Shown: positions 8,375-51,869 of the stretch, piece by piece
Numbering within the stretch: position 1 is the first letter of the stretch
Layout: each line of letters opens with the position of its first letter
Assembly: GCF_004010195.1 (NCBI RefSeq)
Contig: NC_057752.1
Coordinates: 16,102,793-16,166,792 of the forward strand
From: Chiloscyllium plagiosum
Lineage: Eukaryota
Length of the DNA stretch: 64,000 nucleotides
Direction of reading: 5' to 3'
Translations under genes and position numbers: made by a program
Notes under the pieces: generated by a model
The model's input: the letters and a program-made list of their open reading frames with translations, nothing else
What the model was told of the DNA's origin: nothing
The model's database searches: none

Positions 8375-8564
8375 CTGTTTGTGTTCTGTGAATTACTGCA
8401 CTGACTTTCAAGTCCCCCTTGGCAGATATGGTTATCCACTTCCATTCATTAGCAGAGTTTTGTTCACATTCAGCCGTAACAAAAGTATATTTTTTATTCC
8501 CCAGCCCTAATCCATTCTGCTGTAAAACTTGAAGATCACCCAGCAATGCTGTAACTTGTGCACA
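8375..8564 (-). CDS. Divergent profilin-like protein, middle exon (190 bp)
   Basis: atgtgtttcag|TGT GCA CAA...CAA ACA G|gtaagt; CAQVTALLGDLQVLQQNGLGLGNKKYTFVTAECEQNSANEWKWITISAKGDLKVSAVIHRTQT. NGL-x-LG-x-KK-Y matches the profilin core (PFN1 NGLTLGGQKC). Phase 0 to phase 1 and the length match the recalled PFN1/PFN2 exon 2. Confidence 0.72.
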
Positions 8565-8631
8565 CTGAAACACATTAAATAAAAAGAGAATTTAATTTAA
8601 CAAGAGGAATACTTAGTAAATAGCAGTTACC

Positions 8632-9540
8632 AGGACCGACTGAATAACTTGCAGATCATTTCAGAGAACATCTCTGGGATACCCGCACCAACCAACCCCA
8701 CCACCCTGTGGCCAAACACTTCAACTCCCCCTCTGTCAAGGGCATGCAGGTCTTGGGCCTCCTCTATTGCCACACTTTAACCACCTGGAGGAAGGACACC
8801 TCATATTCCACCTTGGGACCCTCCAACCACGTGGGATCAATTTGGATTTCAACAGTTTCCTCATTTCCCCTCCCCCCACATTATGCCAGTCCCAAGCCTC
8901 CAACCCAGCACCACCCTCTTGACCTAACCATTTTCCTTCCCACCCTATCATCTTTATCTACCTCCTCTTTCCTCTCTCCTCCTCCCTCCCCCCTGCCAAA
9001 ACATATCACATTCCCAGCTACATTCCCCAGCACAGAAACAGACCCACCACTCCAGTTCTTCCATGCTACCCAAATATCCCAATCTAATCCCATTTGCCAG
9101 TCCTTGGCCCATATCCCTCCAAACCCTTCCTATTCATATACCCATCCAAATGCCATATTCCACCTTGGGACCCTCCAACCACGTGGGATCAATTTGGATT
9201 TCAACAGTTTCCTCATTTCCCCTCCCCCCACATTATGCCAGTCCCAAGCCTCCAACCCAGCACCACCCTCTTGACCTAACCATTTTCCTTCCCACCCTAT
9301 CACCTTTACCTACCTCCTCTTTCCTCTCTCCTCCTCCCTCCCTCTCTGCCCCCCCCCCCGCCAAAACATATCACATTCCCAGCTACATTCCCCCAGCCCT
9401 ATCTTCCTCCCATTTATCTCAGCACCACCACCCCCCCCAACCCACAGCCTCATTCCTGATGAAGGGCTTATGCCTGAAACGTCAATTTTCCTGCTCCCCA
9501 GATGCTGCCTGACCTGCTGTGCTTTTCCAACACCACACTC
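8632..9540 (+). mobile_element. Penelope-like element 3' end (GIY-YIG C-terminus and pLTR) with internal duplication
   Basis: PVAKHFNSPS...HLIFHLGTLQPRGINLDFNSF, then a C/T-rich tail and ctgatgaagggcttatgcctgaaacgtc at ~9456-9483. Confidence 0.88.
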
Positions 9541-9739
9541 CATTCTAAAACAGCCGAATACTGAAACAAATTCTACTGTCGTCATGCGCTTTAGGAATGC
9601 AAGAAGCCAGGACTATACTCAAAGATGGTCAACGTAAATGCACTTTAAAAAAAATGAAGTGATCATTTATTTAAAAAACAACTCGAGTTTTGCAAGGTCG
9701 GGGTAGGGAAGAGAAAGTTGGGCAAAAAGAGGGACAAGA

Positions 9740-10790
9740 ATAAAGAGCAATACAAACAGGGACAGGCCCTTTGGTCCCCTTCGTCTGTGCCCACCATACT
9801 GAAACCCCTTTTCACGTACAGGATCTGTATCCCTCTACATGCTTCCTATTCACATTCATCCAAGTGCTTCTTGAATGCTGTTACCATTACTGCGTCCACC
9901 ACCTTGCCTGGTAAATGCATTCTAGGCACTCACCATCCTTTGAAAGAAGAAAAAAATCCCTCACAGCAAATAAACCCAAGTCTAGCCAACTTTGTGTCAT
10001 AGCTAGAAATTACCCCAGACCAGGCAACATCCTGGTAAAGCTTTTCTGTACTCTCTCCAAAACGTCCACATCTTTCTGGTAGTGTGGTGGCTGTACCACA
10101 ATGCAATATTCCAAGTGTGGTCTAACTAAAGTTTAATAAAGCTGCAGCATAACTTGCTTATCCTTATTATCAATACCCCTTCCAATGAAGGCAAGCAGGT
10201 CATAAGCCTTTTACTCTTACCTACCTGCACAGCCACCTTCAGAGATTGTGGACCTGCACACCCAGACCCCTCTGCATGTCAACACTAATTTTCACTTTTG
10301 TTTTTTTGTTTTGGAAGATCAACCTCACATTTGTCCAGATTAAACTCCATCTGCCATTTATCTGCCCATACCTCCAACTGATCTCTGTCCTACAGCATAC
10401 TCCTCACTATCTGCATCTCAAATCTTTGTTTTGTCCACCAATTTACTAATTAGACCAGCTACATTTTCCTCCAAAGTTGTCTATATAGAGCATGAACACC
10501 AGAGATCCCACTGATCCTGGTTGAACACTATTAGGCAAAACCCTACATTCCAAGAGGCGTCCTTCACTGTTACCATCCATCTCCTTTGAGACCTGGTTCT
10601 GTATCTATTTTGCCAGCTTACCCAAATACTATGTGACTTCACCTTTTCTACTCTGCCACAAGGAAGGACTCATTAAAAGCTTTACTGAAGACAAAAATCA
10701 GCCACTTTTCCCTCAAATCACCCCCTCCTCAAAAAACGCAAATCAAGTGAGTGAGGCGTGACCTTCCCACAAAAAGCTGTTGCTTGCTAA
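9740..10790 (-). mobile_element. Decayed CR1 LINE RT/3' fragments
   Basis: ccaggcaacatcctggtaaa, taaactccatctgcca (WQMEFN on the minus strand). Confidence 0.75.
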
Positions 10791-10869
10791 TGAAATTTTG
10801 AAAACAAAAACATAAGTACAAGTTAGGCTGGGGCGGTTTTCCTTTTTACAAACGAGAAGAGCAGCAAGA

Positions 10870-11260
10870 CCAATTTTCTGGGCCAGTAGATTGTTAGGCC
10901 TTTAGTAGGGTGTTGTACGCTTCCTGACAGATGTGAGAGAGTTGCCATGTCATTGATAATTATGTCTGCAGGAAGTGTCTTTGGTTGCAAATCCTATCAA
11001 TTGCATGGATCAGTTGGAGCAGCAGTTAGAGGCCATGAAGAATTGACAGGAGCTAGGGGGTGTGATGGATGACAGTTATAGGCAGGGAGAAAATGTCAGG
11101 TAGATGGGTTACCTCCAAGAAAGGTAGGAAGGTAGTACAGGAGTCTCCTCTGGCTATCCCCACCTCAAACAAGTCTGCTGTTTTGGAAAATGCAGGGGGT
11201 GATGGACTGTCAGGGAAATGTAACAAAAACAGCCAAGTTTCTGGTACAGACACTGGTTAG
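10870..11260 (+). mobile_element. CR1 ORF1 fragment
   Basis: Homologous to the ORF1 part of the CR1 at 62423-62970 (VVQESPLAIPTSNKSAVLENAGGD). Confidence 0.8.
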
Positions 11261-11761
11261 AACATAGAACAGTACAGGCCCTCAATATTTTTAACTGTAA
11301 AGATCAAACTAACCTACATACCCTTTGTCATAATATCTTCTACGTGCCTATCCAAGAGTTGCTTAAAATGTCCCAAGTGTATCTGACTATCACCATTGCT
11401 GGCAGTTCATTCCATGCACCCACCACTCTAGAGAACCTTCCTCGAACATCTCCCCTAAACCTGGGATGGAGCACCCCTGCCTGGTGATTGTGTGGTGTCC
11501 AGTTGGTGACCACTGTAGTCATAGACATTCAGCCTGGGATCTTTGGGTGACCTTCCTCCAAGGTGGAGGTCAGGATATTCAACAGAGTGGCTGAGCTGAG
11601 GCTGCTAGCCAGGGTTGGTACCCAAGATGAGGGCCTCAACCAGGACGGACACACACACAGATGTCTATGAGGTGAATTTGTAATTGCAGATACATTCTAC
11701 TTTGTTCAAAAAGCACACAACTTGCAGGTAGGCAATGCAGGCAGACATAGTCATAGAGATG

Positions 11762-11878
11762 GAGAAAGTGAGGGCTGCAGATCAAAGCTGAAAATGTGTT
11801 GCTGTAAAAGCCCAGCAGGTCAGGCAGCATCCAAGGAACAGGAGAATTGACGTTTCGGGCATAAGCCCTTCATCAGGG
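11762..11878 (-). mobile_element. Short PLE-derived insert (family A)
   Basis: Perfect 15-bp TSD atagtcatagagatg at 11747-11761 and 11879-11893. Confidence 0.88.
11849..11876 (-). ncRNA. Minimal hammerhead ribozyme motif (family A)
   Basis: Minus strand CTGATGA-a-gggc-ttat-gccc-GAAA-cGTC: both catalytic boxes intact, perfect 4-bp stem II, GUC triplet; stem I weak. Confidence 0.65.
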
Positions 11879-11879
11879 A

Positions 11880-12820
11880 TAGTCATAGAGATGTACAGCA
11901 CAGAAACAGACCCACCACTCCAGTTCTTCCATGCTACCCAAATATCCCAATCTAATCCCATTTGCCAGTACTTGGCCCGTATCCCGCCAAACTCTTCCTA
12001 TTCATACACCCATCCAAATGCCTCTCAAATGTTGCAATTGTACCAGCCTCCACCACATCCTCTGGCAGCTCATTCCATACATGTACCACCCTCTGGGTGA
12101 AAATGTTGTCCCTTAGGTCTTTTAGATCTTTCCCCTTAACCCATGCCCTCTAGTTCTAGACTCCCCCACCCCAGGGGGAACATCTTACCTGTTTATCCCC
12201 TCATGATTTTTTGTTTAAAATATAAACCTCTACAAGATCCAAGATCGCCCCTCAGCCTCTGATGCTCCAGGGAAAACAGTCCCAGCCTGTTCAGCCTCTC
12301 CCTATCGCTGAAATCTTCCCACCCTGGCAACATCTTTGTAAATCTTTTCTGAGCCCTTTCAAGTTTCACAACATCCTCTGATCAGAAGGAGACCTGAACT
12401 GCACAGTGTTCCAAAAGTGGCCTAACCAATGTCCCGGTACACCTGCAACATGACCTCCCAACTCCTGTACTCCATACTGGACAATAAAGGAAAGCATACC
12501 AAACGTGCTCTATTCCTGAAGGGCTTTTGCCCGAAATGTCGATTTTCCTGCTCCTTGGATGCTGCCTGACCTGCTGTGCTTTTTCAACACCACACTAATC
12601 TAGACTCTGGTTTCCAGCATCTGCAGTCCTTGTTTTTAACCTAGCCTTCTTCACTATCCTATCTACCTGCGAGTCCACTTTCAAGGAGCTATGAACCTGC
12701 ACTCCAAGGTCGCTTTGTTCAGCAACACTCCCCAGGACCTTACCATTAAGCCCTGTTAAGATTTGCTTTCCCAAAATGCAGCACCTCACATTTACCTAAG
12801 TTAAACTCCATCTGCCATTT
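11880..12820 (-). mobile_element. CR1 LINE 3' end, with a family A PLE insert at ~12512-12640
   Basis: RT end (DLGVQVHSSLKVDSQVDRIVKK) plus a 3' UTR ending in ctctatgactat. Confidence 0.9.
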
Positions 12821-13799
12821 CAGGTGGACCTGAAAATTCAGTTTTTTTAAAAAAGGGAAAAAAGGTATTGTTTTAAAAAAAAAGTGTGAAGAAACAGTAC
12901 TGGAACAAAGATCACCAAAACTAAAGAGAGGAGACCATTAAGACAGGGAAAGCTTTGGTTCAGATCACAGCTTCAAGGAATGTCTTTTGTTTTAGAAAGA
13001 GAGTGGGGCAGAGTTTAGAGCCAAGGCACAGACACTGAATTAAGGGGTGATGGGCATCAGAAACATGCAGGAGGCCAGAATCTACAGGAACACAGATCTA
13101 AGAAGCGTTATTAAATCAAGGTGAGAGAGGATGAAAATGGTAGATTTAAAAACATTGGCAGAAAGACCATAGCAAGGAAAAGGGATGACAAGAACAGAAC
13201 CAGCCCCTGGAGCTTCAATGACTATTCGATTGTTTCCTCCTCGTTCATATCAACATGATATTTCGGACATCTGTGTAAACTGCAGCATTTACCTCTGCAC
13301 TCCTCCAGCAGCCCCTTATCCAGCCTTCCATTAAACTTTGGATGCAGCCTCCAACTCCATTTCCAAATCGGCCAATTCTGTCCAACTACAACCCTAACCC
13401 ATCCAAAGAAAACTGCCAGCCCACAGCCTCCCCTAACTCTGGGCCTCTAATTCAGACAGGCCCAGTCATTTTCAGGAAATGGCATCTTATCCAGGTTCTA
13501 GAGCACAATGAGTCAGATCAGGTGACTTTGGCAGTCAGTCAGTCATATAGAGGCTCTTGTACAAATCATGCTGGGATCTCACAAAGAAAGAAAGCTCGGA
13601 TAACATCAAGTGCAAGATATCAGGACTACTTCAAAACCGGATTGACCGAAATCTCCAGAGGTCCCACCTTCTCAACCTCTCCCCTGACCAAAGGCAGTCT
13701 CCCCTAAAATTAAACTCACGACCAGTCACCTACCTGTTTGATTAAGGAGCACCCCTATGGTTGAGACTACAGCAACTTTAAGCAGCTAGAGAATGCTAA

Positions 13800-15000
13800 T
13801 TAAATTTTGTGGGATGTGGACGTTGCTGGTGGGGTCACCATTTAGTGGGGAGCTGCCTTCTTGAACTGCTGCAGGTAGACCTTAAGAGAAAGGAAATTCC
13901 AGGATTTTGACCCAGCAATATATTTCCAAGTCGAGATGGAGTGTGGCTTGGAGGGAAACTTGAAGGTAGTGATGTCCCCATGTGTCTGCTGTCTTTGTCC
14001 TTCCACATGGAAGTGGTTGTAGGTTTGGAAGTGCTGTCTGGGCGGCATGGTGGCACAGTGGTTAGCACAGAGACCCGGGTTCAATTCCCACCTCAGACGA
14101 CTGTGTGGAGTTTGCACATTCTCCCCATGTCCGTGTGGGTTTTCTCCAGTTTCCTCCCACAATCCAAAGATGTGCAGGTTAGGTGAATTGGCTATGCTAA
14201 ATTGCCCATAGTGTTAGGTGTAGGGGGAATGGTCTGGGTGAGTTACACTTCAACGGGTCGGTGTGGACTTGTTGGGTCGCAGGGCCTGTTTCCACATTAA
14301 GTGATCTAATCTTTGAATGCCTGCAGTGCATCTTGTAGATGGTACAATGTTCCTACCAAGTGTCAGTGGTAGAGGGAGTGGATGTGGTGCTATTCAAGAA
14401 GAGGCTGCTTTGTTCAGAATGGTGTTGAGCTTCTGGAGTGTTGTTGGAGCTGACCCCATCCAGGGGCAAATGGGAAGTGCCCCATCACACTCCTGATGTG
14501 TGGAGTGTTGATGGCGGGATAGGCTTTGGAAAGTCAGGAGGTACATTACTTGCTGCAGTATCACTACTGTCTGACCTGCTCTTGTAAACAATGTTTATGT
14601 AGTGACTCCTGTCGAGTTTCTGGTCAATGATAACCCCCAGAATGTTGATAGTGGGGGAATTCAGTGATGGTAAATATTATTGAATGCCAGGGGACAATGG
14701 GTTTTGTCTCTTATTGGTGATGGTCATTGTCTGGCTTACATGGGTGAGCATTTACTTGCTACTTGCCAGCTAAAGGCTGGATATTGTCCAGGTCTTGCCG
14801 CATTTGACAGTGAACTGCTTTAATATCTGAAGAGTCATGTATTATGCAACGTTCAGCACCATCACCAACTAACAACCTCACTTCAGACCTTCTGATGGAG
14901 GGAAGGTCATTGATGAAGCAGCTGAAGATGGTTGGGCCGAGGACACTCCCCCGAGGGACTCCTGCAGAGATGGCCTGGAGCTGAGGTGACTGACCCTCCA
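13800..15000 (-). mobile_element. Old CR1/L2-like LINE RT and 3' region, split by a SINE
   Basis: ORF 14759-15142: ISAGVPRGSVLGPTIFSCFINDLPS (RT motif). Confidence 0.8.
14041..14312 (+). mobile_element. HE1-type V-SINE
   Basis: Same head, V-domain and tail as 5604-5880. Confidence 0.9.
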
Positions 15001-15514
15001 ACCACAAGATTAGCATGGTGCTGGAAACACGCAGCAGGTCAGGCAGCATCCAAGGTGCAGGAAGCCTGACCTCCAACCACATCTGTCTTTTGTGTGCCAG
15101 GTATGATAAAGTAGTTGACAGTTTACCCCTCCCCCACCCCAATATCTATGCATTCCAGGTTTGTGATCACAAGAGTCAAGAATGCTCCCAGTCAGTCAAT
15201 CCTCAAGATCAGCAAATCCTCTTTTTCAGAGAAACACAGAAAGCAGTCATGGAGACTACAGCAGAATCAGACCACTCAAACTCGTCCTTGCTGACCAAGT
15301 TTCCCAAAGCCTGCATTTAATACATATCCTAAAAACTTTTGCTATTCACATAGCTGCCCAAATGTCTTTTAACATTATCATTGTATCCTCATTCACCACT
15401 TTCTCCAGCAATTTATTTCACATGCATACCATCCTGTGGTGAGAATGTGGCCCCTCAGACGCTTTTTAAAAATCTCTTCTTCCTGATCTTAAAAAATGTT
15501 CCCTCTAGATTTCA

Positions 15515-16030
15515 TGGAATCCCAGTGTGGAAACAGGTCACTCAGCCCATGAAGTCCAGTGATCCTCTGAACAGCATCCCACCCAATCTCACTCTCTTAC
15601 CCTATGTTTGCAACCCAATATGTCCTATGGCTAATCCACCCAACCTATGATGGAGGAGGTGGGAGTGTTGGACTGGGATGGACAAGAGTTAAAAAACCAC
15701 AACACCAGGTTATAGTCCAACAGGTTTACCAGGTAGGAAAGGAACAGTGCTCCAAAAGCTAGTACTTTCAAATAAATCTGTCGGTGTTGTGATTTTTTAA
15801 AATTTTGTCCACCTAACTTAAGCATCCCCAGACACCATGGGCAATTTAGCATGACCAATCCACTCTAATCTGCACATCTATGAACTGTGGGAGGATACCC
15901 GAGCACCCGGAGGAAACCAATACACTCACAGGGAGAATGTCTGTGCAAACTCCATAGTCTTCAGAGGGTGGAAGTGAATCTGCATCCCTGGTGCTGAGAG
16001 GCGGCAGCAGCTGCTAACCACTATGCTACC
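15515..16030 (-). mobile_element. V-SINE with a nested palindromic family B insert (~15648-15807)
   Basis: Reverse V-domain; insert acaacaccaggttatagtccaacaggttta...ggaacagtgctccaaaagctagt...ggtgttgtgattttt flanked by tccacc[c/t]aac[c/t]ta. Confidence 0.75.
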
Positions 16031-17269
16031 CTTTGAACTCCCCAATCCTAGGGTGTAAGACTTTTCACATTTTCAGCTCTGATCTCCAGCATCTGCAGAC
16101 CTCACTTTCTCCAGCAGAAAGTGAACCAGCCTATCCTTCTAATTCAAACCCTCTATTCCTGGTAAATCTTTTCTGAACCCTCACCAATTTAGTAATATCC
16201 TTCCTATAGCAGGGCTACCAGAACTGCACAAGTTACTAAAAAAAAAAACAAAGAAATACAGCACAGAAACCACCGCTTTGGACCTTCAAACCTATGCCAA
16301 CCATCATGCCCTAACTAAACTGAAATCAAACAAACCTTCTGTCCTTATTTGGTCCCTATCCCTTTATTCCCTTCTAGTCACATAATCATACAGATGCCTC
16401 TTAAAATATCACCAACGTGCCTGCTTCCACCACCTCTCCTCTCACCGCCATGTTTCCAGTGAAAAAACAATCCTAGTCTTTAGAAGATTCTCAGATCCAG
16501 CGCCAAGACCAGGCAACACCCTGGTGAACCTTCTCTGCACTCTCTCCAAAGCTTCCACGTCCTTCTGGTAGTGTGCAATTTTGGTCACCACATTAATTGG
16601 TCTTTTATGGAGAACAGAAGGGGAAAGAGTAGTTAATCTGCCAACCCCCGTCCAACTCACCTTCGAAAAGGATAATTTAGCAAGACTATTTTGGATCGTA
16701 ACCAATTACTTGGTCAATAATTCTGAACATTAAATCTGTTCCTCTGCGTCTGAAGAAATTCAAAACACTAGTTTTAATCAAGATTGTACCACTTATCCCT
16801 CAAGCCACAGGAAACAAAGGTCACAGCTGCTGACCTGAGCACTGAAAAGCAAGTGACATCCCTCAAGGGTGAAACTGGCAATCCCCTGAAAGTACAGGAT
16901 TCGATTAGAGGGGGAAAAAAAATAATTCATAAGCAGCTGCGAAAAGTCAAGGCAGCTGCACCAGCCAAAAGCAAGCAGTTAGCTGGTAGCAGCAGCACAA
17001 AACACTGAACAAAGAGCCAACACTTCAAGAAAGAGAGAGAGTCTTAAGAGTTATATTGTAGAGCAATAGACTCAGTCCAACTAGTCCACACTGACTGGAT
17101 ATCCTGATTTGATCCAGTCCCATTGGCTAACATCTGTCTGAACCCTGTTCCAGCACATGCACCGCCCGCTGACTCAAAAAACAATCTGATTGTGCGTCAG
17201 TATTTGTGGATTGCTCATGAGGCTGTAATCAGACATGTGTTTTTTCAGCCTCCTGCCCATCTATGTCAG

Positions 17270-17895
17270 AGTTATACAGCACAAACAGACTCTTTGGACC
17301 AATTTGTCCATACAGACCAGATATCCTAAAATTAATAGAGTCAGATTTGCCAGCATTGGGCCTATATCCCTCGAAACCCTTCCTGTTCATATACCCATTC
17401 AGCTGCCTTTTAAGTGCTGTAATTGTACCAGCCTCCACCACTTCCTCTAGCAGCTCATTCCATACATGCACCACCCTGTGTGAAAAAGCTGTCCTGATGC
17501 AACTTAGTCTTTTTCCTCTCACCCTAAACCTTTGCTACCTTGGGGAAAAAGAGCCTTTGCTTTCCTACCTATCCATACTTGGGATCTCTAAAAAAGGTCA
17601 GCCTGCAGCTTCAGACATTCTAGGGGAAAAATAAACAGCCCCAGCCTATTCAACCTCTCCCTACAGCTCAAACCAAGTAACAACCACACAAATCTTTTCT
17701 GAACTCTTTCAAGTCTCACATCATCTTACCTATAAGAGGGAGACCAGAACTGCACACAACATTCCAAAAAAGTAGTGTCCGGCACAGCTGCAACATGACC
17801 TCACAACTCCTATATGTAATGCACTGACCAATAAAGGCTGGCATAGCAAGTGCCTCCTTCTCTATCCTGTCTACTGGTGACTCACTTTCAAGAAA
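17270..17895 (-). mobile_element. CR1 LINE 3' end
   Basis: ORFs 17229-17522 (RVVHVWNELLEEVVEAGTI) and 17716-17913. Confidence 0.88.
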
Positions 17896-18654
17896 GTGCA
17901 AAACTGCCCACAAAAGGTCTGGTCAGGAACACCCACATCCATCAAACAAACTGAAGAGAAAAAAAAAGTTTAAAAAAGTTACATTAATTTCAAATCTTTA
18001 TACACTAATGTGGTGTTTAATAGTTCATATTTGAAAGGAAATTGAAATACCATGTATGAGCAGCCTGGAGCTGCATAAAAGAACCAGATGTGACCACATT
18101 TGAAATGATTAGACAGTATGGTAGCATTGTAAGTAGCTTCATAAAACTGAATAATTTGGTCGAAAGTTTTGACCAGGCTTTTTACACTAAATAACTGTCT
18201 ATGCTACAGCTGCCTTTCCATCGTGAAGACAAAGAGGCCTCCTTCGTCCCCAGCACACTCTCCGAGTCCCAGGAGACGGCTCAGGAATGAAACCGCATCA
18301 GAGTGACGCTTGCTCGCCTCCCAGCGCCAGCAGGCGGCCAGTCAGCCCTTCGGCCCCCCCACCCCGTGCTGGCCCTGCGGGGCAGCCGATTCGCCACGGG
18401 CAGGGAGAGAGTGAAAGGAAGTTTTAGCGGAGCCGGAGTGCGACCTGGGGCCGACACTTGAATCCCCCCGGGGGTGGGGAAAGGGAGATGGATTCACTCC
18501 CCTCCCCCACCCAACCACGGGCGGGGCACAGCCTCCACCCAGAGCCGGGCACTCAGAACCAGGAAGTACCTCGGGGGGAGGGAGGGAGAGAGAGAGAGAC
18601 ACAGAGACATACGGGGGGAGGGGCTGGAAAGGGAGCCAGGGGATGGAAAGGAGG

Positions 18655-19005
18655 CTGTTTGAAATTGGAGAACTCAGTGTTGAGTTCTCCGGGCTGTAGG
18701 CTACCCAGGTGGAAGATGAGATGTCGTTCCTCCAATTTGCGGTCTGATTCGCTGTGGCAATGGAGAAGGCTGAGGATGCTCATGTTGGAAAGAGAGTGGG
18801 AATAGGAATTAAAATGGGCGGTGACTGGGAGGGCCAGTCGGCCCCTGTGTACCCGACTGAGGTACTGGGCGAGACATGCCTTTCGTTTATGTTTGGTCTC
18901 CCCAATGTAGAGAAGACCACATTGGGAGCACCTGATACAGTAGACTAGGTTGGAGCAGGGGCAGGTGAACCTCTGTCTCACCTGGAAGGACTGTTTGGGG
19001 CCATC
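18655..19005 (-). mobile_element. Penelope-like element GIY-YIG endonuclease fragment
   Basis: FTCPCSNLVYCIRCSQCGLLYIGETK...PVTAHFNS...LEERHLIFHLGSLQPGELNTEFSNF: VY...YIG motif with intervening cysteines, typical of PLE endonucleases. Confidence 0.92.
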
Positions 19006-19409
19006 TTGGTCAGGCCTAGGGGCAAGGCCATGAGAAACCATGTAGACGTGTTCAGCCCTCCCACCACCGGGTACCCGTAGATCAGGAACATGGGGCTTAA
19101 GTGCAGCCATATTTAAGGAGCAGCTCCGTCAAAAACCTAAAAAGGGACAGCAAATGGACACAGTCTCTGCACTTAAGAAAGACTGTCTCCTCCTGGGCAC
19201 AAACGCTACACGTGGTCTGGCACCTGGTGAGGTTTCTCAATCCACAGTCACACGAGATCACACTCTCCACCCCAGACCCCTGATGGAAAAGAGGAAAACC
19301 CCTTCATAGAGGGCCCTCCACTGGGGGTCTCTGCTGCGAGAGGACAGGCGAGCAGAGAGTGTGCAGCATCAGCCCGCACAGATAGCATCTCCGTGCTCTC
19401 TGAAAGGTA

Positions 19410-21390
19410 TACATGGACACCAAAAACCCTCTGCACATCCACATTACCAAGAATCTTTTCATTGACCCAGTATTCTGCCTTTCTGTTATTCTTCCCAAAG
19501 TGAATCACCTCACATTTAACTGAATTGAACTCCATTTGCCACCTCTCAGCCCAATTCTGCAGTTTATCCCATTCCCCTTCAACATTATTCCACAGTGTCC
19601 ACCACTCCACCGACTTTAGTGTCAACTTACTAATCCATCCACCTATGCCTGTGTCGTTGTCGCAAAACTGCTCCAGACTGAATATTTTCCCTCAACCACC
19701 ACTCGCTGCCTTCTTCCAGCAAGCCAGTTTCTAATCCAGACTGCTAAATCACCTTCAATCCCATGCCTCTGCATTTCCTCCAACAGCCTACCATGTGGAA
19801 CCTTATCAAAGGCTTTACTGAAGTCCATGTACACCATGTCAACTGCCCTACCCTCATCTACACGCTTGATCACCTTCTCAAAAAACTCAATGAAGTTGGT
19901 GAGACATGATCTGCCCTTGACAAATCCATGTTGACTATTTCCAATCAAATTGTTGCTGGCTAGATGTTTATAAATCCTATCTCTTATAATCCTTTCCAAA
20001 CCTTTTTCTACAACAGACGCAAAGCTCACTGGTCTATAATTACCTGGGTCATCTCTACTGCCCTTCTTGAACAAGGGCACAACATTTGCAATCCTCCAGT
20101 CCTCTGGTACTAAACCTGTAGACAATGATGACTCAAAGATCAAGGCCAAAGGCTCTGCCATCTCCTCCCTAGCTTCCCAGAGAATTCTCCGATAAATCCC
20201 ATCTAGCCCAGGGGACTTTCACTCCTTCTAGAATTGATAACACCTCTTCCTTACTAACCTCACTCCTTTCTAGTCTAATATCTCATATCTCATTCTTCTC
20301 CTTTACAATATTCTCCTTTTCCTGAGTGAAAACTGATGAGAAATATTCATTTAGCCCCTCTTCGATCTCCACAGAGTCCACACACAACTCCCCACTTCTG
20401 TCTATGACTGGCCCTATTCCTACCCTAACCATCCTTTTATTCCTCACAGACCTATAGAAAGCTTTAGGGGTCTCCTTTATTCTATTTGTTAAAGACTGCT
20501 CGTGTCCTCTCCTTGCTCTTCTTAACTCTCTCTTTAAATCTTTCCTCGTTAATCTGTAACTCTCCATTGCCTCATCTGAACCATCTCACCTCAACGTCAC
20601 ATAAGCCACCCTCTTCCGCTTAACAAGAGATACAATTTCTTCAGTAAACCACGGTCCCCTTACCTTATCACTTCCTCCCTGCCTGACAGGGACAAACCTA
20701 TCAAGGACACGAAATATCTGTTCCTTAAGCCATTTCCACATTTCGATTGCCCCATCCCCTGCATTTTGCTACCCCATTCTATGGTTCCTAAGCCTTGCCT
20801 AATCGCATTACAATTGCCCTCCCCTCATCTATAATTCTTGCCCTGTGGCATGTACCTATCCTTTTCCATCGCTAAACTAAACGTAACTGAATTATGGTCA
20901 GTCTCTCCAAATTGTTCACCTACCACTAAATCAAACACCTGGCCTGGTTCATTACCAAGTACCAGACACAGTCTGGCCTCCCCCCTTGTCAGCCCTTTGA
21001 CTTACTGTGTCAGGAAACCCTCCTGTACACATTCGACACAAACTGATCCGTGTGACGTACTAGAGTTATAGCATTTTCAGTCAATGTTGGGGAAGTTAAA
21101 GTCCCCCATAATGACCACCCTGTTCCTTTCACTCCTACCCAGAATCCATTTGCCAATCCTCTCCTTCACATCCCTGGAACTCTGTGGAGGCCTATAAAAA
21201 AAAACTCCCAGCAGTATGACCTCACTTCTCCTGTTTCTAACCTCAGCCCATACTACCTCAGTAGACGAGTCCTCGTCACAAGTTCTTTCAGCCACTGTTA
21301 TACTATCCTTGACTAACAAGGCCACACCGCCCCCTCTTTTGCTGCCTTGCCTGTTCTTAATGAAAGGTCTAAACCCTGGAACCTGCATTC
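19410..21390 (-). mobile_element. CR1 LINE ORF2 (APE endonuclease and RT), internally deleted
   Basis: RGGGVALLV...VIMGDFNFPNID (EN); NYRPVS...QHGFVKGRSCLTN...YMDFSKAFDKVPH (RT); stops and frameshifts present. Confidence 0.95.
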
Positions 21391-21399
21391 CTGATCTTG

Positions 21400-21915
21400 C
21401 TCTAGGAAAGATGTTGTGAAACTTGAAAGGGTTCAGAAAAGATTTACAAGGATGTTGCCAGGGTTGGAGGATCTGAGCTACAGGGAGAGGCTGAACAGGC
21501 TGGGGCTGTTTTCCCTGGAGCATCGGAGGCTGAGGGGTGACCTTATAGAGGTTTACAAAATTATGAGGGGCATGGATAGGATAAATAGACAAAGTCTTTT
21601 CCCTGGGGTTGGGGAGTCCAGAACTAGAGGGCATAGGTTCAGGGTGAGAGGGGAAAGATATAAAAGGGACCTAAGGGACAACTTTTTCACACAGAGGGTG
21701 GTACATGTATGGAATGAGCTGCCAGAGGATGTGGTGGAGGCTAGTACCATTGCAACATTTAAGATGCATTTGGATGGGTATATGAATAGGAAGGGTTTGG
21801 AGGGATATGGGCCGGGTGCTGGCAGGTGGGACTAGATTGGGTTGGGATATCTGGTCGGCATGGACGGGTTGACTGAAGGGTCTGTTTCCATGCTGTACAT
21901 CTCGATGACTCTATG
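21400..21915 (+). mobile_element. Young 5'-truncated CR1 3' end
   Basis: Open RT C-terminus 21416-21835 (LERVQKRFTRMLPGLEDLSYRERL...) plus 3' UTR ending gactctatg. Confidence 0.95.
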
Positions 21916-22449
21916 TGACAATAAAGCTAATTCAATTCAATTCAAGATGGTTCTGGTTGTTGGCTAAGAATCACTATAATGCCAGAACACTCAGGCAGAT
22001 TCCCCTGGAAATAGCCCTAGTCTGACCATTGCTTGTCCCTCTGTCCATGCAAGTTATTAATGATAGTATAACGCACCAAACCCGATCACGATTCAGGCAA
22101 CTGGTGCCTGTCAGACTTAGACAGAGTGGTTATGGCACTGGAAGAGGCCATTGGGCTTATCAGGGTGGTGCTAGCCCTCTGGAGGAGCAGTTCATTCATT
22201 GTCACTCACTCACTTTTCCCTCCATTGCCCTGCTGTTTGTTTTTTCCCTCATTTCAGTAAGTCCGTTTTGAGATCCTTATCGAGAGCCTGTGTGAATCAC
22301 GCAATCAGACAGCACATTCCAGACCCTGATCACTCACTCTTTGAAAATGTTTCTAGACCCCATAGAAAGGTGACAGCATGGAGAGAAGCCATTCAGCCAA
22401 TAGTGTCCAAGCTGGCTGATTGAACTAGCTGCCCGTTCTTATCTGACTC

Positions 22450-24075
22450 TTAGAATCATAGAATCATACAGCTTAGAAACAAACCCTGTGCTCCAACTCA
22501 TCTGTGCCGACAAAATCTCCTAATCTGACTTAGTCCCATTTCCCAGTACTTGGCCCATATCCCTCTCAACCCTTCCTATTCATATACCCATACAGATGCC
22601 TTTTAAATGCTGTAATTGTATCAACCTCCATCACTTCCTCTGGCAGCTTATTCCATACACACACCACCCTCTTTCTGATATAGTTACCCCTTGGGTCCCT
22701 TTTTAAATCTTTTTCCTCTCACCTTAAACCTGTGCCCTGTAGTGCAGAATCTTGTGCTTCAGCTTGCAGCTCAACAACCGAAATGGGGGTGAATTCCGGA
22801 CACCCATCACCCTCTGTGGGAGGGGAAAAGAGTTTCCCCATGTCTTCTGCTAACCATTTGAATCTGTTCCCCTTGCTTTTTCAGTCTGGATGAAGTTCTC
22901 ATTTTCCACTCTATCAAACTCCCTTGTTATTTTGTACACCACACTTCAGTCATACCTTCAATATCCTTGTGTTGAAGGAACACAGCCCCAGACGATATAA
23001 CCTTTCTTCTTAGCTGCAATTTGAAAACCCTTAGTAACACACTTCTAAACCTACTCTGTATTCACCCCAGAACAACAATTTCCTTCCCATAATGTGGTGA
23101 TCAAAACGGTACACAGAACTCTAACTGTGGCCTAACCATTGCCTTATATAGTTGCAGCTTGCTTTTATACCCCAGCTATTCGCAATACAGATTAATGATT
23201 GACACAAATGGAATATCTCCAACTTTACCGATGACACAAAGTTTGGGGGAGTTTTGCTGTGAGGAGGATGCAAAGATGCTTCAGTGTGATTTGTACAATT
23301 TGAGTGAGTGAGCAAATGCATGGCAGATACAATGTGGATAACTATGAGGTTATGCGCTTTGGTGGCAAACACAGGAAGGCAGATTATTATCTGAATGGTG
23401 ATAAGTTGGGAAAGGGAGAGCTGCATCGAGATCTGGGTTTCCTTGCATACCAGTCGCTGAAAGAAAGCATTGCGTCTACAGGAGCTGGTAAAGAAGACAA
23501 AGGTTATAGAGAGTACAGGAGCAGGATGTCTTTCTGCAACTGTATCAGACCTTCATGAGACCACACTGGAATATCGTGTGCAGATTTGGTCTCCTTATCT
23601 GAAGAACAATGTTCTCGTTGTAAAGGGTGTGCAATAAAAATTTACCAAGTTAATTCCTGGCAAGGCAGGGCTGACATATGCAGAGAGACTGGATTGGTTA
23701 TACTCACGTGAGCTTTGAAAAAGGAGGAAGGCTCTCATAGAAACCTATAAAATTCTAACAGGACTAGACAGGGTAAACGTGGGAAGGATGTTCCTGATGA
23801 CTGGAGAATCCAGAACCAACAGGTCACAGTCTACGGATACAGTGTCGGCCATTTCAAACTGAGACAAGGTAAAATATCTTCACCCAGAGAGTGGGAAACT
23901 TGTCAAATTATCTACCATAGAAAGTGGTTAGGGGCAAAACATTGACTGTTTTTAAGGAGGAGTTAGATATAGTTCTTAGAGCCAGAGGGATCAATGGGTA
24001 TGGGACAGAAAGTGGGTGCAGGAGACTGAGTTACATGATAAGTCATGATCATGTTGATGGGCTGAATGGCCTACT
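22450..24075. mobile_element. Cluster of CR1 fragments on both strands
   Basis: Minus-strand 3' UTR pieces at 22450-23150; plus-strand RT remnant at 23200-24075 (tttaccgatgacacaaag, FADDTK-like). Confidence 0.78.
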
Positions 24076-24649
24076 CTATTTTGTATCTAATCAGTACCTC
24101 GTACTACGAAGGAAAGCCTTCTTTAGCACCTTATTAACCTGTCTTGAACGTTTCAGAGTCCTGTCAACATGCAGTCACAGGTCACTCTATCTCCTCTCAA
24201 TACCCTCTCATTAATTGTGTAAACCCTTTTTTAAATCTCTCCCCAGGTGCATAATCACATATTTCCTGGATTGAATTCCATTTGCCATTTTTCTATCCAC
24301 TCAACCATTCGTACTATTTTGCGGTCGCCCCACCCCCTTCATTATCACCTACAAGACCTACCTTGTGCACATTTTCCCAATCATGCCTCCCATATTTAAG
24401 CCTAAGTCATTAATATTTATCACAAACAGCAAGGGACCCAACACTGAGCCCTGTGAAATATCCTTGGAAACTACTTTCCATTCATCAACCATTACCCTCA
24501 GTTTTGTGTCACTGAGTCAACGTTTTATCCAACTCACCACTTTCCCCCAGAGCTCATGACCTTTCATTTTTCTGGATCAGTCTGCCTTGTCAAATGCCTG
24601 TCAAAAACCCACATCCGCTGCACTACACTCCTCAATTGTCCTTGTTACT

Positions 24650-24942
24650 TAGAATTACTAAGTGTAGGTAGAGGCCATTTGAGTCTGCACCAGTCCTCTG
24701 AAGAGCATCTCTATCCCTGTAACTGTAATCTTCCTAGTCTGCACATCCCAGGATACTAGGGACACTTTAGTACAGCCAATTCACCTGACTTGCACATCTT
24801 TGGACTGTGGGAGGAAACCTGAGCACCCAGAGGAAACCCACGCAGACACAGGGAGAACATGTAAACTCTACACAGTCGCCCGAGGGTGGAATCGAACCCA
24901 GGTCCCTGGTGATGTGAGGCAGCAATGCTAACCACCATGCCA
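24650..24942 (-). mobile_element. V-SINE within decayed CR1 (24110-25180)
   Basis: Reverse complement of the V-domain and tRNA-like head. Confidence 0.85.
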
Positions 24943-25519
24943 CACTTCCTCAAGCAATCCAATTAAGTTTGTAAGACATAACCTTCCATTAATAAAATCA
25001 TGCTGACTATGTGATTAATGTGTGCCTTTCCAAGTTCTAAATCTCAATAGCAATTCCAATAATTTTCCCACTACCAAGATCAGGCTGACTAGTCTATCAG
25101 TATTTTGACTTCTCTCTCACATCCCTTTCAAAGAATGACACAGCATTTGTAGACCACCAATCCTCAAGTCTTTTGAATGCAGCCATTTTATCGAGTTACA
25201 GGGGTATACAGCACAGAAAAATCCCCCTTGGCCCACTGAATCTATGCCAGTCAAAAATATGCACCTAACTATTGTCAGAATAAAATACTGTCTGACTGAT
25301 GAGCAGAGGGGATTTTTTTCTGAAGGGTCCAACAAGAAATGAAAGGTACATTCCAGATAGAGACAAAATGAACTGCAAATGGTCAGGAATGAATAGCAAT
25401 CCTTCACAACACTCATACAAGTAATCTTTTTATGCTAATGTTCTGACGTGATGTGATTCACATGATTCGTTGGTTAAAACTGCAATTGTGTTGTAACTTG
25501 CATCAATTGACCATAAGAC

Positions 25520-26450
25520 CATATGACATGGTACAGATTAAGGCCGTTCAACCCACTGAGTCTACTTCAGCATTCAATAAGACCCATGGCTAATTTGATA
25601 ATCCTCAACTCCACATTCCTGCCTTTTCCTCATAACCGTCAATCTCCTTCCCAATTTAAAATGTCTATCTCAGCCTTAAGTATACACTTAATGGTCCAAC
25701 TGATAAATTGGGAAAGGGCGAGGGAGAGAAAAATTCCTCTCTGAGAGAAGAATTTCCTCCTCATCTATGTCTTAAATGGGAATCCCCTTATTCTGAGATT
25801 ATACCCTCTGATCCTAGAGTCTCCCACGAGAAGAAATAACCTCTCAGCATCTCCCCTGTCAAGTTCCCTAAGAATCCTATTTGTTTCAATAAGGTCTCTT
25901 CTCATTCTCCTAAACTCCAATGAGTACAGGCCCAAACTACTCAGCCGCACCTCATAAAACCTCCATTCCTGGGACTAGTCAAGTGAACGTTCTTTGGAAT
26001 GTCTCTGATGCCAGTATCTTTCCTTTGATAAGTGACCAAGAATTGTACACAATATTCCAACTGTTGTATGATCAGTGCCTTGTGTAGTTTAAGCACTTTT
26101 AGACTCTATTCCCTTTGAAATAAAGGTCAATATTCTATTTGGAGGAGAAAGTGAGGTCTGCAGATGCTGGAGATCAGAGCTGAAAATGTGTTGCTGGAAA
26201 AGCGCAGCAGTTCAGGCAGCATCCAGGGAACAGGAGAATCGACGTTTCGGGCATAAGCCCTTCTTCAGGAAGAAGGGCTTATGCCTGAAACGTCGATTCT
26301 CCTGTTCCCTGGATGCTGCCTGACCTGCTGCGCTTTTCCAGCAACATATTTTCAGCTCAACATTCTATTTACCTTCCCTATTATCTGCTAAACTTGAATG
26401 AATTTATTTTTATGAATCATGGACGAGGACCCCCAAATCCCTGTGTCCTG
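25520..26450 (-). mobile_element. CR1 LINE 3' end
   Basis: ORF 25765-25950: RLSSLGLYSLEFRRMRRDLIET. Confidence 0.88.
26141..26357. mobile_element. Palindromic PLE-derived insert (family A), hammerhead core on the minus strand and a truncated core on the plus strand
   Basis: ~90-bp near-perfect inverted arms; 13-bp TSD caa[t/c]attctattt at 26128-26140 and 26358-26370. Confidence 0.9.
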
Positions 26451-26919
26451 TAATTTTTTTTTTAAATTGTGACCTTTCTGATGGACCAGCATTTACTGAT
26501 CTTTCCTCATTGTTCTCAAGGTGAGATTCTGCCTTGCATCACTACATTGTCTGGTGTGTTTTAGTTCAGCAGTTCTATCGTTGAACATAAAACATAGAAC
26601 AGTACAGCACAGGAACATGACACCAAATTAAACTAATGCCTTCTGGCTGCCCTTGGTCTATATCCCTCCATTCCCTGAATATTCATGTGCTTATCTAAAA
26701 GCCCCTTAAATACCCCTATTGTACCTGCCTCAGCCACCATCCCTGGCAATGTGTTCCAGACTGCTACCACTCTCTGTGCAAGAAACTTACCCCTTACATC
26801 TCCTTTGAACTTGTAAGACATGAATTTCCCTGCACAAAACCACTTTGACTGTCCCCAATTAGGCCATGCTTTTGCAAATGTAAACCATTTTGATTCAGGT
26901 GTGGATTTGATGAACTCAC

Positions 26920-27035
26920 TGTGAGATTCTGTACCATGTGCCGAGCTGGTTGTAATGCATCAAAATGAAAGATAGGAATATAATTGTTTCCCTTTAAGGT
27001 AGAAAAATATTTCTCAAGATCCGCCAGAACGTAAT
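26920..27035 (-). CDS. Candidate upstream exon of the profilin-like gene (116 bp)
   Basis: cctttgtcag|AT TAC GTT...AAT CTC ACA|gtgagt; (D)YVLADLEKYFSTLKGNNYIPIFHFDALQPARHMVQNLT. Ends in phase 0 on NLT, like the NIT| end of PFN1 exon 1, and is in frame with 8375-8564. Lies in non-repeat sequence. Overall similarity to profilin is weak. Confidence 0.45.
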
Positions 27036-27120
27036 CTGACAAAGGTATGCATCGATATGTAAATATAGTGGCTTTTAAAACCGGAATTAATTTTGTGGGT
27101 CAGACTCTGTGTTTACTTAC

Positions 27121-27148
27121 CATTAAAGTAGAATTGGATGAAATGCAT
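27121..27148 (-). CDS. Candidate first coding exon (MHFIQFYFN, phase 1) of the profilin-like gene
   Basis: ctagaATG CAT TTC ATC CAA TTC TAC TTT AAT G|gtaagt; strong donor, A at -3, upstream in-frame TAA. An 85-nt GT-AG intron joins it in frame to 26920-27035. Confidence 0.35.
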
Positions 27149-27789: not shown

Positions 27790-29438
27790 NNNNNNNNNNN
27801 NNNNNNNNNNNNNNNNNNNNNNNNNNNNNNNNNNNNNNNNNNNNNNNNNNNNNNNNNNNNNNNNNNNNNNNNNNNNNNNNNNNNNNNNNNNNNNNNNNNN
27901 NNNNNNNNNNNNNNNNNNNNNNNNNNNNNNNNNNNNNNNNNNNNNNNNNNNNNNNNNNNNNNNNNNNNNNNNNNNNNNNNNNNNNNNNNNNNNNNNNNNN
28001 NNNNNNNNNNNNNNNNNNNNNNNNNNNNNNNNNNNNNNNNNNNNNNNNNNNNNNNNNNNNNNNNNNNNNNNNNNNNNNNNNNNNNNNNNNNNNNNNNNNN
28101 NNNNNNNNNNNNNNNNNNNNNNNNNNNNNNNNNNNNNNNNNNNNNNNNNNNNNNNNNNNNNNNNNNNNNNNNNNNNNNNNNNNNNNNNNNNNNNNNNNNN
28201 NNNNNNNNNNNNNNNNNNNNNNNNNNNNNNNNNNNNNNNNNNNNNNNNNNNNNNNNNNNNNNNNNNNNNNNNNNNNNNNNNNNNNNNNNNNNNNNNNNNN
28301 NNNNNNNNNNCTCCTGTACTCAATACTCTGACCAATAAAGGAAAGCATACCAAACGCCTTCTTCACTATCCTATCTACCTGCAACTCCACTTTCAAGGAG
28401 CTATGAACCTGCACTCCAAGGTCTCTTTGTTTAGCAACACTCCCTAGGACCTTAACCATTAAGTGTATAAGTCCTGATAAGATTTGCCTTTCCAAAATGC
28501 AGCACCTCGCGTTTATCTGAATTAAACTCCATCTGCCACTTCTCAGCCCATTGGCCCATCTGGTCAAGATCCTGTTGTAATCTGAGGTAACCTTCTTCGC
28601 TGTCCACTACACCTCCAATTTTGGTGTCATCTGCAAACTTACTAACTGTACCTCTTATGCTCACATCCAAATCATTTATGTAAATGATGAAAAGCAGTGG
28701 ACCCAGCACCGATCCTTGTGGCACTCCACTGGTCACAGGCCTCCAGTCTGAAAAACAACCCTCACCATTATCCTCTGTCATTACCTTTGAGTTGGTTCTG
28801 TATCCAAATGGCTAGTTCTCTCTGTATTCCATGAGATCTAACCTTGCCAATCAGTCTCCCATGGGGAACCTTATTGAACGCCTTACTGAAGTCCATATAC
28901 ATCACATCTACCACTCTGTCCTCATCAATCCTCTTTGTTACTTCTTCAAAAAAACTCAAACAAGTTTGTGAGACATTATTTCCCATGGACAAAGCCATGT
29001 TGACTATCCTTAATCAATCCTTGCCTTTCCAAATACATGTAAATCCTGTCCCTCAGGATTCCCTCCAACCACCAGCCCACCACTGACGTCAGGCTCACTG
29101 GTCTATAGTTCCCTGGCTTGTCCTTACCACCTTTCTTAAACAGTGGCACCATGTTAGCCAACCTCCAGTCTTCTTGCAACTCACTTGTGACTTTTGATGA
29201 TCCAGATATCTCAGCAAGGGGCCCAGCAATCACTTCTTTAGCTTCCCACAGAGTACATCTAGAGTACACCTAATCAGGTACTGAGGATTTATCCACCTTT
29301 ATGCATTTTAAGACATCCAGCACTTTCTCCTCTGTAATATGGACATTTTTCAAGATATCACCATCTATTTCCTCACATTCTATATCTTCCATGTCCTTCT
29401 CCATGGTAAACACTGATGGAAAATATTGGCCACTGATT

Positions 29439-32220: not shown

Positions 32221-33630
32221 AGGGACAGCACGGGGTGAGATACAGAGTAAAGCTCCCTCTACACTGTCCCCCCCATCAAACATCCCCAGGACAGGGACAG
32301 CACGGGGTTAGATACAGAGTAAAGCTCCTTCTACACNNNNNNNNNNNNNNNNNNNNNNNNNNNNNNNNNNNNNNNNNNNNNNNNNNNNNNNNNNNNNNNN
32401 NNNNNNNNNNNNNNNNNNNNNNNNNNNNNNNNNNNNNNNNNNNNNNNNNNNNNNNNNNNNNNNNNNNNNNNNNNNNNNNNNNNNNNNNNNNNNNNNNNNN
32501 NNNNNNNNNNNNNNNNNNNNNNNNNNNNNNNNNNNNNNNNNNNNNNNNNNNNNNNNNNNNNNNNNNNNNNNNNNNNNNNNNNNNNNNNNNNNNNNNNNNN
32601 NNNNNNNNNNNNNNNNNNNNNNNNNNNNNNNNNNNNNNNNNNNNNNNNNNNNNNNNNNNNNNNNNNNNNNNNNNNNNNNNNNNNNNNNNNNNACTAGACG
32701 GCATAGGTTTAGGGTGAGAGGGGAAAGATATAAAAGAGACCTAAGGGGCAACGTTTTCATGCAGAGGGTGATACGTGTATGGAATGAGCTGCCAGAGGAA
32801 GTGGTGGAAGCTGGTACAATTACAGCATTTAAGAGGCTTCTGGATGGGTATATGAATAGGAAGGGTTTGGAGGGATATGGGCCGGGTGCTGGCAGGTGGG
32901 ACTAGATTGGGTTGGGATATCTGGTCGTCATGAACGGATTGGACCGAAGGGTCTGTTTCCATGCTGTACATGTCTATGACTCTATGACAGGCTTAGCACA
33001 GGATCAGATACAGAGGAAAGCTCCCTCTACACTGTCTCCCCATCAAACACACCCAGGGACAGGGACAACAGGGGTCAGATATAGAGGAAAGCTCCCACTA
33101 CACTGTCTCCCCATCAAACACACCCAGGGACAGGGACAGCACGGGGTCAGATACAGAGGAAAGCTCTCTCTACATTGTCCCCCCATCAAACACTCCCAGG
33201 GACAGGAACAGCACGGGGTTAAATACAGAGTAAACCTCCATCTACACTGTCCCCCCCCCATCAAACACTCCCAGGGACAGGGACAGCACGGGGTTAGATA
33301 CAGAGTAAAGCTCCCTCTACACTGTCCCCCCATCAAACACTCCCAGGGACAGGGACAGCACAGGGTTAGATACAGAGTAAAGCTCCCTCTACACGGTCCC
33401 CCATCAAACACTCCCAGGGACAGGGACAGCACAGGGTTAGATACAGACTAAAGCTCCCTCTACACTGTCCCCCATCAAACACTCCCAGGGACAGAGACAG
33501 CACGGGGTTAGATACAGACTAAAGCTCCCTCTACACTGTCCCCCATCAAACACTCCCAGGGACAGCACGGGGTTAAATGCAAAGTGAAGCTCTCTCTGCA
33601 TTGTGCCCCATCACACACTCTCAGGACAGT
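32221..33630 (+). repeat. ~71-bp minisatellite (cagggacagggacagcacggggttagatacagagtaaagctccctctacactgtcccccatcaaacactcc), interrupted by a gap and a CR1 3' end (32693-32986)
   Basis: Tandem copies seen directly; inverted copies at 42315-42525. Confidence 0.93.
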
Positions 33631-35597: not shown

Positions 35598-36292
35598 GAA
35601 TCATAGAATCTGTACAGTGTGGAAACAGGCTCTTCAGCCCAACAAGTCCACACCAACCCACCGAAGGGATCCCACTAAAATCCATTCCCCATTACTCTAA
35701 GTTTACCCCTGACTAATACACCTAACCTGCACATCCCTGGACACTATGGGACAATTTCCCATGGCAAACCCACCCTAACCTACACATCCCTGGGCATTAT
35801 GGGACAATTTCCCATGACCAACCCACCCTAACCTGCACATCCTTGGACACTATAGGACAATTTCCCATGGCAAACCCACCCTAACCTGCACATCCCTGGG
35901 CATTATGGGACAATTTCCCATGACCAATCCACCCTAACCTACACATCCCTGGGCACTATGGGACAATTTCCCATGGCCAATCCACCCTAACCTGCACATC
36001 CCTGGGCACTATGGGACAATTTCCCATGACTAATCCACCCTAACCTGCACATCCCTGGGCATTATGGGACAATTTCCCATGACCAATCCACCCTAACCTG
36101 CACATCCCTGGGCACTATGGGACAATTTCCCATGGCCAATCCACCCTAACCTGCACATCTTTGGACTGTGGGAGGAAACCCATACAGACACGGGAAGAAT
36201 GTGCAAACTCCACACAGGCAGAGGCTGGAATCGAACCTAGGTCCCTGGTGCTGTGAGGCAGCAGTGCTAACCCCTGAGCCACCGTACCGCCC
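35598..36292 (-). mobile_element. V-SINE with an internal 53-bp tandem expansion (~8 units, 35720-36160)
   Basis: Unit ccaccctaacctgcacatccctgggcactatgggacaatttcccatggccaat. Confidence 0.9.
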
Positions 36293-42314: not shown

Positions 42315-42525
42315 CTGGGAGTGTTTGATGGGGGGACAGTGTAGAGGGAGCCTTCCTCTGTATCTAACCCCGTGCTGTCCTTGTCCCTGGGAGTGTTTGA
42401 TGGGGGACAGTGTAGAGGGAGCTTTACTCTGTATCTAACCCCGTGTTGTCCCTTTCCCTGGGAGTGTTTGATGGGGGACAGTGTAGAGGGAGCTTTACTC
42501 AGTATCTAACCCCGTGCTGTCCTTG
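42315..42525 (-). repeat. ~71-bp minisatellite, inverted relative to 32221-33630
   Basis: Reverse complement of the same unit. Confidence 0.92.
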
Positions 42526-44477: not shown

Positions 44478-44511
44478 CACCTGACGAAGGAGCAGCGCTC
44501 CGAAAGTAGTG
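44478..44511 (+). ncRNA. Minimal hammerhead ribozyme motif (family B; element ~44470-44562)
   Basis: cac-CTGACGA-a-ggagc-agc-gctcc-GAAA-g(c)ta-gtg: perfect 5-bp stem II, stem I cac/gtg; lacks one base of the AGCT palindrome seen in the copies at ~3754 and ~15757. Confidence 0.55.
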
Positions 44512-51841: not shown

Positions 51842-51869
51842 GCCATATTAAAACTGGTGAACTTTCGAG

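Follow-up and report, generated by a model that had tools for sequence, protein, structure and literature searches.

PFN1 and PFN2 are textbook examples of conserved vertebrate proteins. Their genes have three coding exons, with a phase 0 border after the N-I-T motif and a phase 1 border near residue 108, while the coding region of PFN3 is intronless. Two further vertebrate profilins, PFN3 and PFN4 of mammals, have diverged and show changes in their ligand sites; as given in the available text of PMC2694148, PFN3 retains the actin site and half of the poly-proline site, and PFN4 has neither. PFN3 is described as confined to mammals and marsupials in the accessible part of PMC4996343. Here we analyzed a 64,000-nt stretch of the genome of the bamboo shark Chiloscyllium plagiosum (contig NC_057752.1, positions 16,102,793 to 16,166,792 of the forward strand), called the window below, in which an earlier note, made from the sequence alone, had proposed a highly divergent profilin-like gene with an extra intron. 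The data showed that the window contains a real exon, the middle coding one, of a very divergent bamboo-shark profilin. The gene is likely a fast-evolving elasmobranch descendant of PFN1, and the comparisons suggest that its altered surface is the actin face.

The earlier note had joined three pieces of the minus strand into one open frame, and their GT-AG borders, positions, lengths (28, 116, and 190 nt), and frame were all reproduced. As had been proposed, the 190-nt piece runs from phase 0 to phase 1, which we take to be the layout of PFN1 and PFN2. In a rough weight matrix made for this analysis, which is the source of all splice scores given here, its acceptor scored 6.1 bits and its donor 12.9 bits, the latter being the strongest donor of the three pieces. 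The 63 residues that it encodes are all identical (63/63) to residues 40–102 of a full-length protein, P0001, and its last base, a G, agrees with the first base of the Ala103 codon of this protein. When searched alone, the exon scored 15.7 bits against the Pfam Profilin model (E 0.016), which is below the cut-off of 25, its PDB search returned one chance match and no profilin, and Atlas placed it with profilin clusters at 0.88, which serves as a lead only. The exon was also sought in sequencing runs, where 18 of 24 run rows, from 12 studies, held at least half of its 16 sampled words, with none of the runs recorded as RNA, so that these matches do not bear on expression. Runs under 12 organism labels held 81%–100% of these words, which is puzzling, because the closest annotated species differ by at least 20% in protein; varied labeling of a single species or carry-over from run to run could explain it.

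P0001 was the sole match among 11 candidates when longer proteins were sought with the 63-residue query. It is 135 residues long and comes from a 616-nt ENA contig. Its residues 1–39 correspond to a conventional profilin exon 1, its last 33 residues to the conventional C-terminal helix, and the exon borders in the window fall at the places in P0001 that correspond to a PFN1/2-type three-exon layout, of which exons 1 and 3 were not seen in the DNA. When searched with tblastn, the sequenced bases of the window gave no match to exons 1 and 3 of P0001 or of its orthologue P0002, the best E values being 1.1 and 0.15. Because P0001 continues across both exon borders within 616 nt, while the introns lie in the window, its sequence would derive from a spliced product. 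It starts one residue past Trp3, at a second methionine also found in the orthologues, which themselves carry Trp3.

The full-length protein was recognized as a profilin by several approaches. It passed the Pfam Profilin model (PF00235) with 49.3 bits (E 6.6e-13, cut-off 25), and it matched human PFN1 and rat PFN2 with E values of about 2e-6. The AlphaFold model reached a pLDDT of 92.6 with a 25-sequence alignment, which included PFN2 sequences that can favor the profilin fold, and a first model made with three sequences only had a pLDDT of 55.5. Foldseek aligned the model to human PFN1 with a TM score of 0.87, and superposition on the same protein gave a Z score of 21.2 and an rmsd of 1.7 over 130 residues (VIA), with residues 1–135 of the model corresponding to residues 4–139 of PFN1. 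Hence, P0001 is predicted to have the complete profilin fold, with the beta-sheet core and the adjacent N- and C-terminal helices, which it shares with human and bovine PFN1 (PDB 1awi, 2btf) and PFN2. The profile and fold checks that had been proposed for the exon thus gave a subthreshold score for the exon itself, and a Pfam pass and a PFN1 fold match for the protein. A metagenome scan with P0001 gave 203 pattern matches, none of which was confirmed.

To compare P0001 with its relatives, proteins were gathered by searches with P0001, by searches with an alignment of relatives, and by cluster look-ups. One of the relative searches gave 16 matches, from which two long repeat proteins (P0005 and P0017) were dropped, and five partial or alternative isoforms (P0003, P0011, P0014, P0016, and P0029) did not enter the tree. 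Besides P0001, the tree contained 13 elasmobranch proteins, which represent 10 species; 12 of them are named profilin-1-like and one profilin-2-like in NCBI or UniRef. These include the NCBI profilin-1-like proteins of Chiloscyllium punctatum (XP_072447801.1), Hemiscyllium ocellatum (XP_060710626.1), and Scyliorhinus torazame (XP_072349322.1), which appear to share the gene lineage of P0001. The proteins of C. punctatum and H. ocellatum also resemble P0001 in length and motifs. The source of the C. plagiosum protein itself is the ENA contig only, unlike that of its NCBI-annotated relatives.

In the IQ-TREE analysis of 25 rows, P0001 and the 13 elasmobranch proteins were found on one side of a branch with support of 93/93. 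P0001 grouped with the Chiloscyllium and Hemiscyllium proteins (100/99), the catshark pair joined this trio (97/95), and the batoids formed a group of their own (82/80); the grouping of orectolobiforms with catsharks and that of the batoids agree with the species tree. Two copies each were present in S. torazame (P0004 and P0030), Pristiophorus japonicus (P0013 and P0022), and Hemitrygon akajei (P0010 and P0021). The S. torazame copies have consecutive accessions and lie on one contig, and the pairs of S. torazame and P. japonicus are each far apart in sequence.

The median identity within the elasmobranch group was 30% (range 23%–81%, 91 pairs), compared with 73% among seven teleost PFN2 rows, which were matches to shark queries or a cluster member and hence not randomly sampled. 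The identity of P0001 is 76% to the C. punctatum protein, 67% to that of H. ocellatum, where it is even across the three exons (26/39, 43/63, and 22/33), and 24%–37% to members of other shark orders and to rays. The annotated elasmobranch relatives all carry automatic names only. A profile of the group scored mammalian PFN1 at 112–118 bits, PFN2 at 107–111 bits, and non-vertebrate profilins at no more than 42 bits. These data suggest that the gene belongs with vertebrate PFN1/2/3, being far nearer to PFN1 and PFN2 than to non-vertebrate profilins, and the slightly higher profile scores of PFN1 would fit a descent from PFN1. They are also in agreement with the proposal of a highly diverged, fast-evolving profilin. 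The further suggestion that it was possibly an undescribed paralog goes too far, since the relatives are automatically annotated in NCBI and the gene may be an orthologue of PFN1.

To see which ligand surfaces are conserved, contact sites were taken from the available text of PMC2694148, with the teleost PFN2 rows as a yardstick for the 14 elasmobranch rows. In the poly-proline groove, which PFN1 and PFN2 share as Trp3, Tyr6, Trp31, and His133, the elasmobranch proteins keep Trp3 in 12/12 and Tyr6 in 13/13 of the rows that cover the site, and Trp31 in 14/14. An aromatic residue or histidine is present at position 133 in 11/14 rows, and an aromatic residue at position 139 in 9/14. In P0002 and P0032, the RefSeq model of C. 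punctatum, four of the five groove sites (Trp3, Tyr6, Trp31, His/Tyr133, and Tyr/Phe139) are kept, with Ile or Val at 139. The earlier note had found no evident N-terminal tryptophans, which is explained by the use of a wrong exon 1.

The actin contacts listed in the same source (Phe59, Arg74, Arg88, Lys90, His119, Lys125, and Tyr128) are retained at six or seven of seven in the teleost PFN2 rows, with His119, Lys125, and Arg74 at 7/7. Among the elasmobranch rows, an aromatic residue at 59 is found in 7/14, Arg74 in 6/14, Arg88 in none (12 have lysine), Lys90 in 11/14, His119 and Lys125 in 1/14 each, and an aromatic residue at 128 in 6/14. The bamboo-shark trio P0001, P0002, and P0032 has none of the seven contacts identical; one conservative change (R88K) is seen in the MAFFT register and none in the HMMER register. 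Moreover, the charge at 125 is reversed in the trio, and both Arg74 and Lys90 are lost. The proteins of the trio contain zero to two arginines each, which removes most of the PIP2 patch as it is outlined in the available parts of PMC2694148 and PMC8387879. Compared with PFN1 and PFN2, to which it is about 25% identical, the shark protein has one arginine in all and a pI of about 5.5, with replacements at Phe/Tyr59, Arg74, Arg88, Lys90, His119, Lys125, Tyr128, Arg135, and the aromatic 139. Judged by sequence, the altered surface would be the actin face and not the poly-proline tryptophans, which is the reverse of the earlier claim. The shark protein is not like PFN4, because Trp3, Tyr6, and Trp31 are kept, although the tree had no PFN4 sequence, and it is not like mammalian PFN3, as its coding exon is flanked by introns and its lineage is that of sharks. 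With the groove mostly kept and the actin site replaced, it would represent the combination remaining beside those of PFN3 and PFN4.

The 5′ part of the gene was assigned differently than had been proposed. In the model with four or more exons, the two pieces near 27 kb would be coding 5′ exons of a main or alternative isoform lacking the N-terminal tryptophan. This model is consistent with the GT-AG borders, the open frame, the good donor at 27121, and the distance from the acceptor to the phase 0 donor, which is close to the length of profilin exon 1. The 48 residues that it assigns to this part were compared with true exon 1 sequences. Their local score was 19, a value also reached in 486 and in 308 of 2000 shuffles, while the comparison of true exon 1 with true exon 1 as a control gave 145. 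For the global scores, the shuffles that reached them numbered 95 and 321 of 2000, with the smaller count being the one borderline result among the four tests. No match to the 26920–27035 piece was found in Pfam or in PDB (E up to 10). In the region 8565–51869, 27 open phase 0 AG..GT stretches with 15 distinct donors have splice scores that equal or exceed those of this piece, which is itself included in the count. In addition, P0001 and its annotated orthologues P0002 and P0032 all have a conventional exon 1, and the ATG exon at 27121–27148 is absent from all three; at the protein level, P0001 joins the 8375–8564 exon to this different first exon, a kind of join that the earlier note had named as refuting its proposal. 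Hence, the model is highly improbable, and the 27-kb pieces are probably a chance splice, with the extra intron unsupported. Such a splice would have come up because this assembly lacks the true exon 1. The 26920–27035 piece lies directly upstream of a LINE relic and reads in frame into its reverse-transcriptase relic. Its Atlas match to the N-terminal part of inorganic pyrophosphatase (26/30 matches, 0.92), obtained with a recognition of 2000 where the guide is 2300, was dismissed as a chance resemblance, as neither Pfam nor PDB returned a match.

A similar join was made in an older, partial C. punctatum model, P0003, in which the homologue of another segment of the window, at 39 kb, is connected to the middle exon; this model comes from a 31,077-bp contig, while P0032, with its conventional exon 1, comes from a 93.8-Mb chromosome. 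The 39-kb segment may be either a pseudo-exon or an actual exon that is minor or untranslated. Its close match to P0003, set against 76% identity across the protein, may point to a coding sequence that changes fast, although the segment is very short. Exon 1 was presumably missing from the contig of P0003, as it is from the sequenced part of the window, and it probably lies at a distance of over 30 kb upstream, either inside a gap or past it. Further N gaps at 27790–28310 and 32337–32692 could also hold it. The positions of all these features are collected in Table 1.

Table 1. Profilin-related and neighboring features of the 64,000-nt window
Feature	Positions	Strand	Details
Exon 2 (middle coding exon) of the diverged profilin-1-like gene	8375–8564	-	190 nt; start phase 0, end phase 1; AG/GT borders
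Exon of the earlier note, probably a pseudo-exon	26920–27035	-	116 nt; splice scores 5.2/6.4 (middling)
ATG exon of the earlier note, unsupported as a coding start	27121–27148	-	28 nt; donor 10.6 (good)
AG..GT segment with a consensus donor	39021–39054	-	34 nt; translation 10/11 identical to the first 11 residues of P0003
Probable location of true exon 1 (inferred)	41732–52369		Three N gaps: 41732–42314, 48217–48279, 51870–52369
Arachidonate lipoxygenase exon	57329–57501	-	PDB best matches ALOX15B/ALOX5
Arachidonate lipoxygenase exon, consecutive to the preceding one	53717–53860	-	PDB best matches ALOX15B/ALOX5
Long minisatellite arrays	45151–51349, 40641–41731, 33006–33629, 35721–36159, 55547–56003		36-bp unit (~173 copies), 23-, 71-, and 53-bp units

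In humans, both PFN1 and an ALOX cluster are located on 17p13, and the PFN1 synteny comprises RNF167, ENO3, SLC25A11, and the ALOX cluster. In the window, two lipoxygenase exons (PDB E 4e-17 and 3e-9) are located about 45 kb upstream of the profilin exon on the same strand, which is a weak sign of PFN1 synteny. Pfam left four open reading frames of the window unrecognized, of which two were these lipoxygenase exons that PDB did match. A motif scan found no later lipoxygenase exons below the 500-N gap at 51870–52369, and the lipoxygenase gene looks cut by the assembly. No other gene was recognized in the window, of which 54 candidate exons were read by eye. The window is rich in repeats, with 48% masked as self-matches and tandem repeats, and it has seven N gaps. 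It also contains many decayed LINE and SINE pieces; these and the minisatellites are ordinary in shark DNA and a likely cause of the gaps.

We consider it moderately probable that the gene encodes a strongly diverged profilin, likely descended from PFN1 in elasmobranchs, which is predicted to have kept poly-proline binding and to bind actin only weakly. The N-terminal aromatic groove of such a protein would dock on the proline-rich tracts found in formins, Ena/VASP, and WASP/WAVE, while little actin would be handed over and PIP2 would be bound poorly. The shark protein could then tune or compete at proline-rich sites, with a conserved PFN2 doing the core work. Several observations weigh against this explanation. 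In the tree, the group does not fall with PFN1, and the rows of bony fish and amphibians meet in an open fork; its only named PFN1 is that of a newt, and it included no mammalian PFN1, PFN4, or conserved shark profilin. Most members of the group are at least as identical to teleost PFN2 as to newt PFN1. The neighborhood is ambiguous as well, because ALOX15B and ALOX5 tie as the best lipoxygenase match and the 500-N gap lies between the lipoxygenase and the profilin exon. As to the ligand sites, three groove sites are seen in P0001, with Trp3 outside its sequence, the aromatic residue at 139 is lost in the trio, and the alignment columns 88–90 and 119–128 vary with the aligner. A minor transcript containing the 27-kb pieces may also be conceivable.

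A profilin may still bind actin after losing the residues that make the contacts in vertebrates, which is another point against weak binding. By analogy, the very distant Odin and Loki profilins, with 12%–22% identity, bind vertebrate actin, as they were crystallized on rabbit actin according to PDB entry titles. Hence, the same gene could encode an ordinary actin-binding profilin, whose actin face drifted with compensating changes and which still sequesters and delivers G-actin. This would agree with the whole fold being kept, with Lys or Arg at position 69 in 14/14 rows, with the retention of Arg74 and Lys90 in rays and Heterodontus, and with newt PFN1, which likewise carries R88K, K125D, and Y128H. 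However, the trio retains none of the seven contacts, with the charge reversal and losses described above, and actin is itself highly conserved, which should leave this face little room to drift as long as binding is of importance; we regard an ordinary actin binder as rather unlikely. It is possible, if somewhat unlikely, that the gene is instead an elasmobranch-specific extra paralogue, which exists beside a conserved shark PFN1 and is specialized like PFN3 or PFN4, for example in the testis, with a divergent actin-related partner. The three-exon layout of PFN1/2 type argues against it, as PFN3 is intronless and restricted to mammals and marsupials, and so do the poly-proline aromatics, which are kept unlike in PFN4, and the group profile, which is slightly nearer to PFN1 than to PFN2. 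On the other hand, the long branches and the repeated lineage-specific duplicates in Scyliorhinus, Pristiophorus, and Hemitrygon would fit such a paralogue. There are also mammalian precedents, since PFN3 and PFN4 are diverged and testis-specific with altered binding, as outlined in the available text of PMC2694148, and PFN3 forms a complex with ARPM1, as far as the available text of 10.1101/2025.03.27.645694 describes it. These explanations are not mutually exclusive. A more speculative and quite doubtful proposal is that positive selection acts on the actin face of this PFN1-lineage profilin in sharks and rays, and that in bamboo sharks the protein would be a natural poly-proline-only decoy or brake at formin and VASP sites, driven by conflict with pathogens that exploit profilin–actin.

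The gene is already automatically annotated in related species. The literature search, which covered listings and abstracts, found no paper on a diverged shark profilin, and on profilin together with Chiloscyllium it returned one review, in the available part of which the only relevant item is a TLR11 table entry (PMC6795676). The conservation of PFN1 and PFN2 contrasts with a median identity of 30% within elasmobranchs and of 76% between close bamboo sharks. If the reading of these sequences holds, the elasmobranch proteins would offer a natural series that separates the poly-proline function of profilin from its actin function, which is otherwise achieved using engineered mutants, and they would bear on the question of when PFN1 became essential. 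If the bamboo-shark protein indeed binds poly-proline only, such a combination of sites would be a first among vertebrate profilins.

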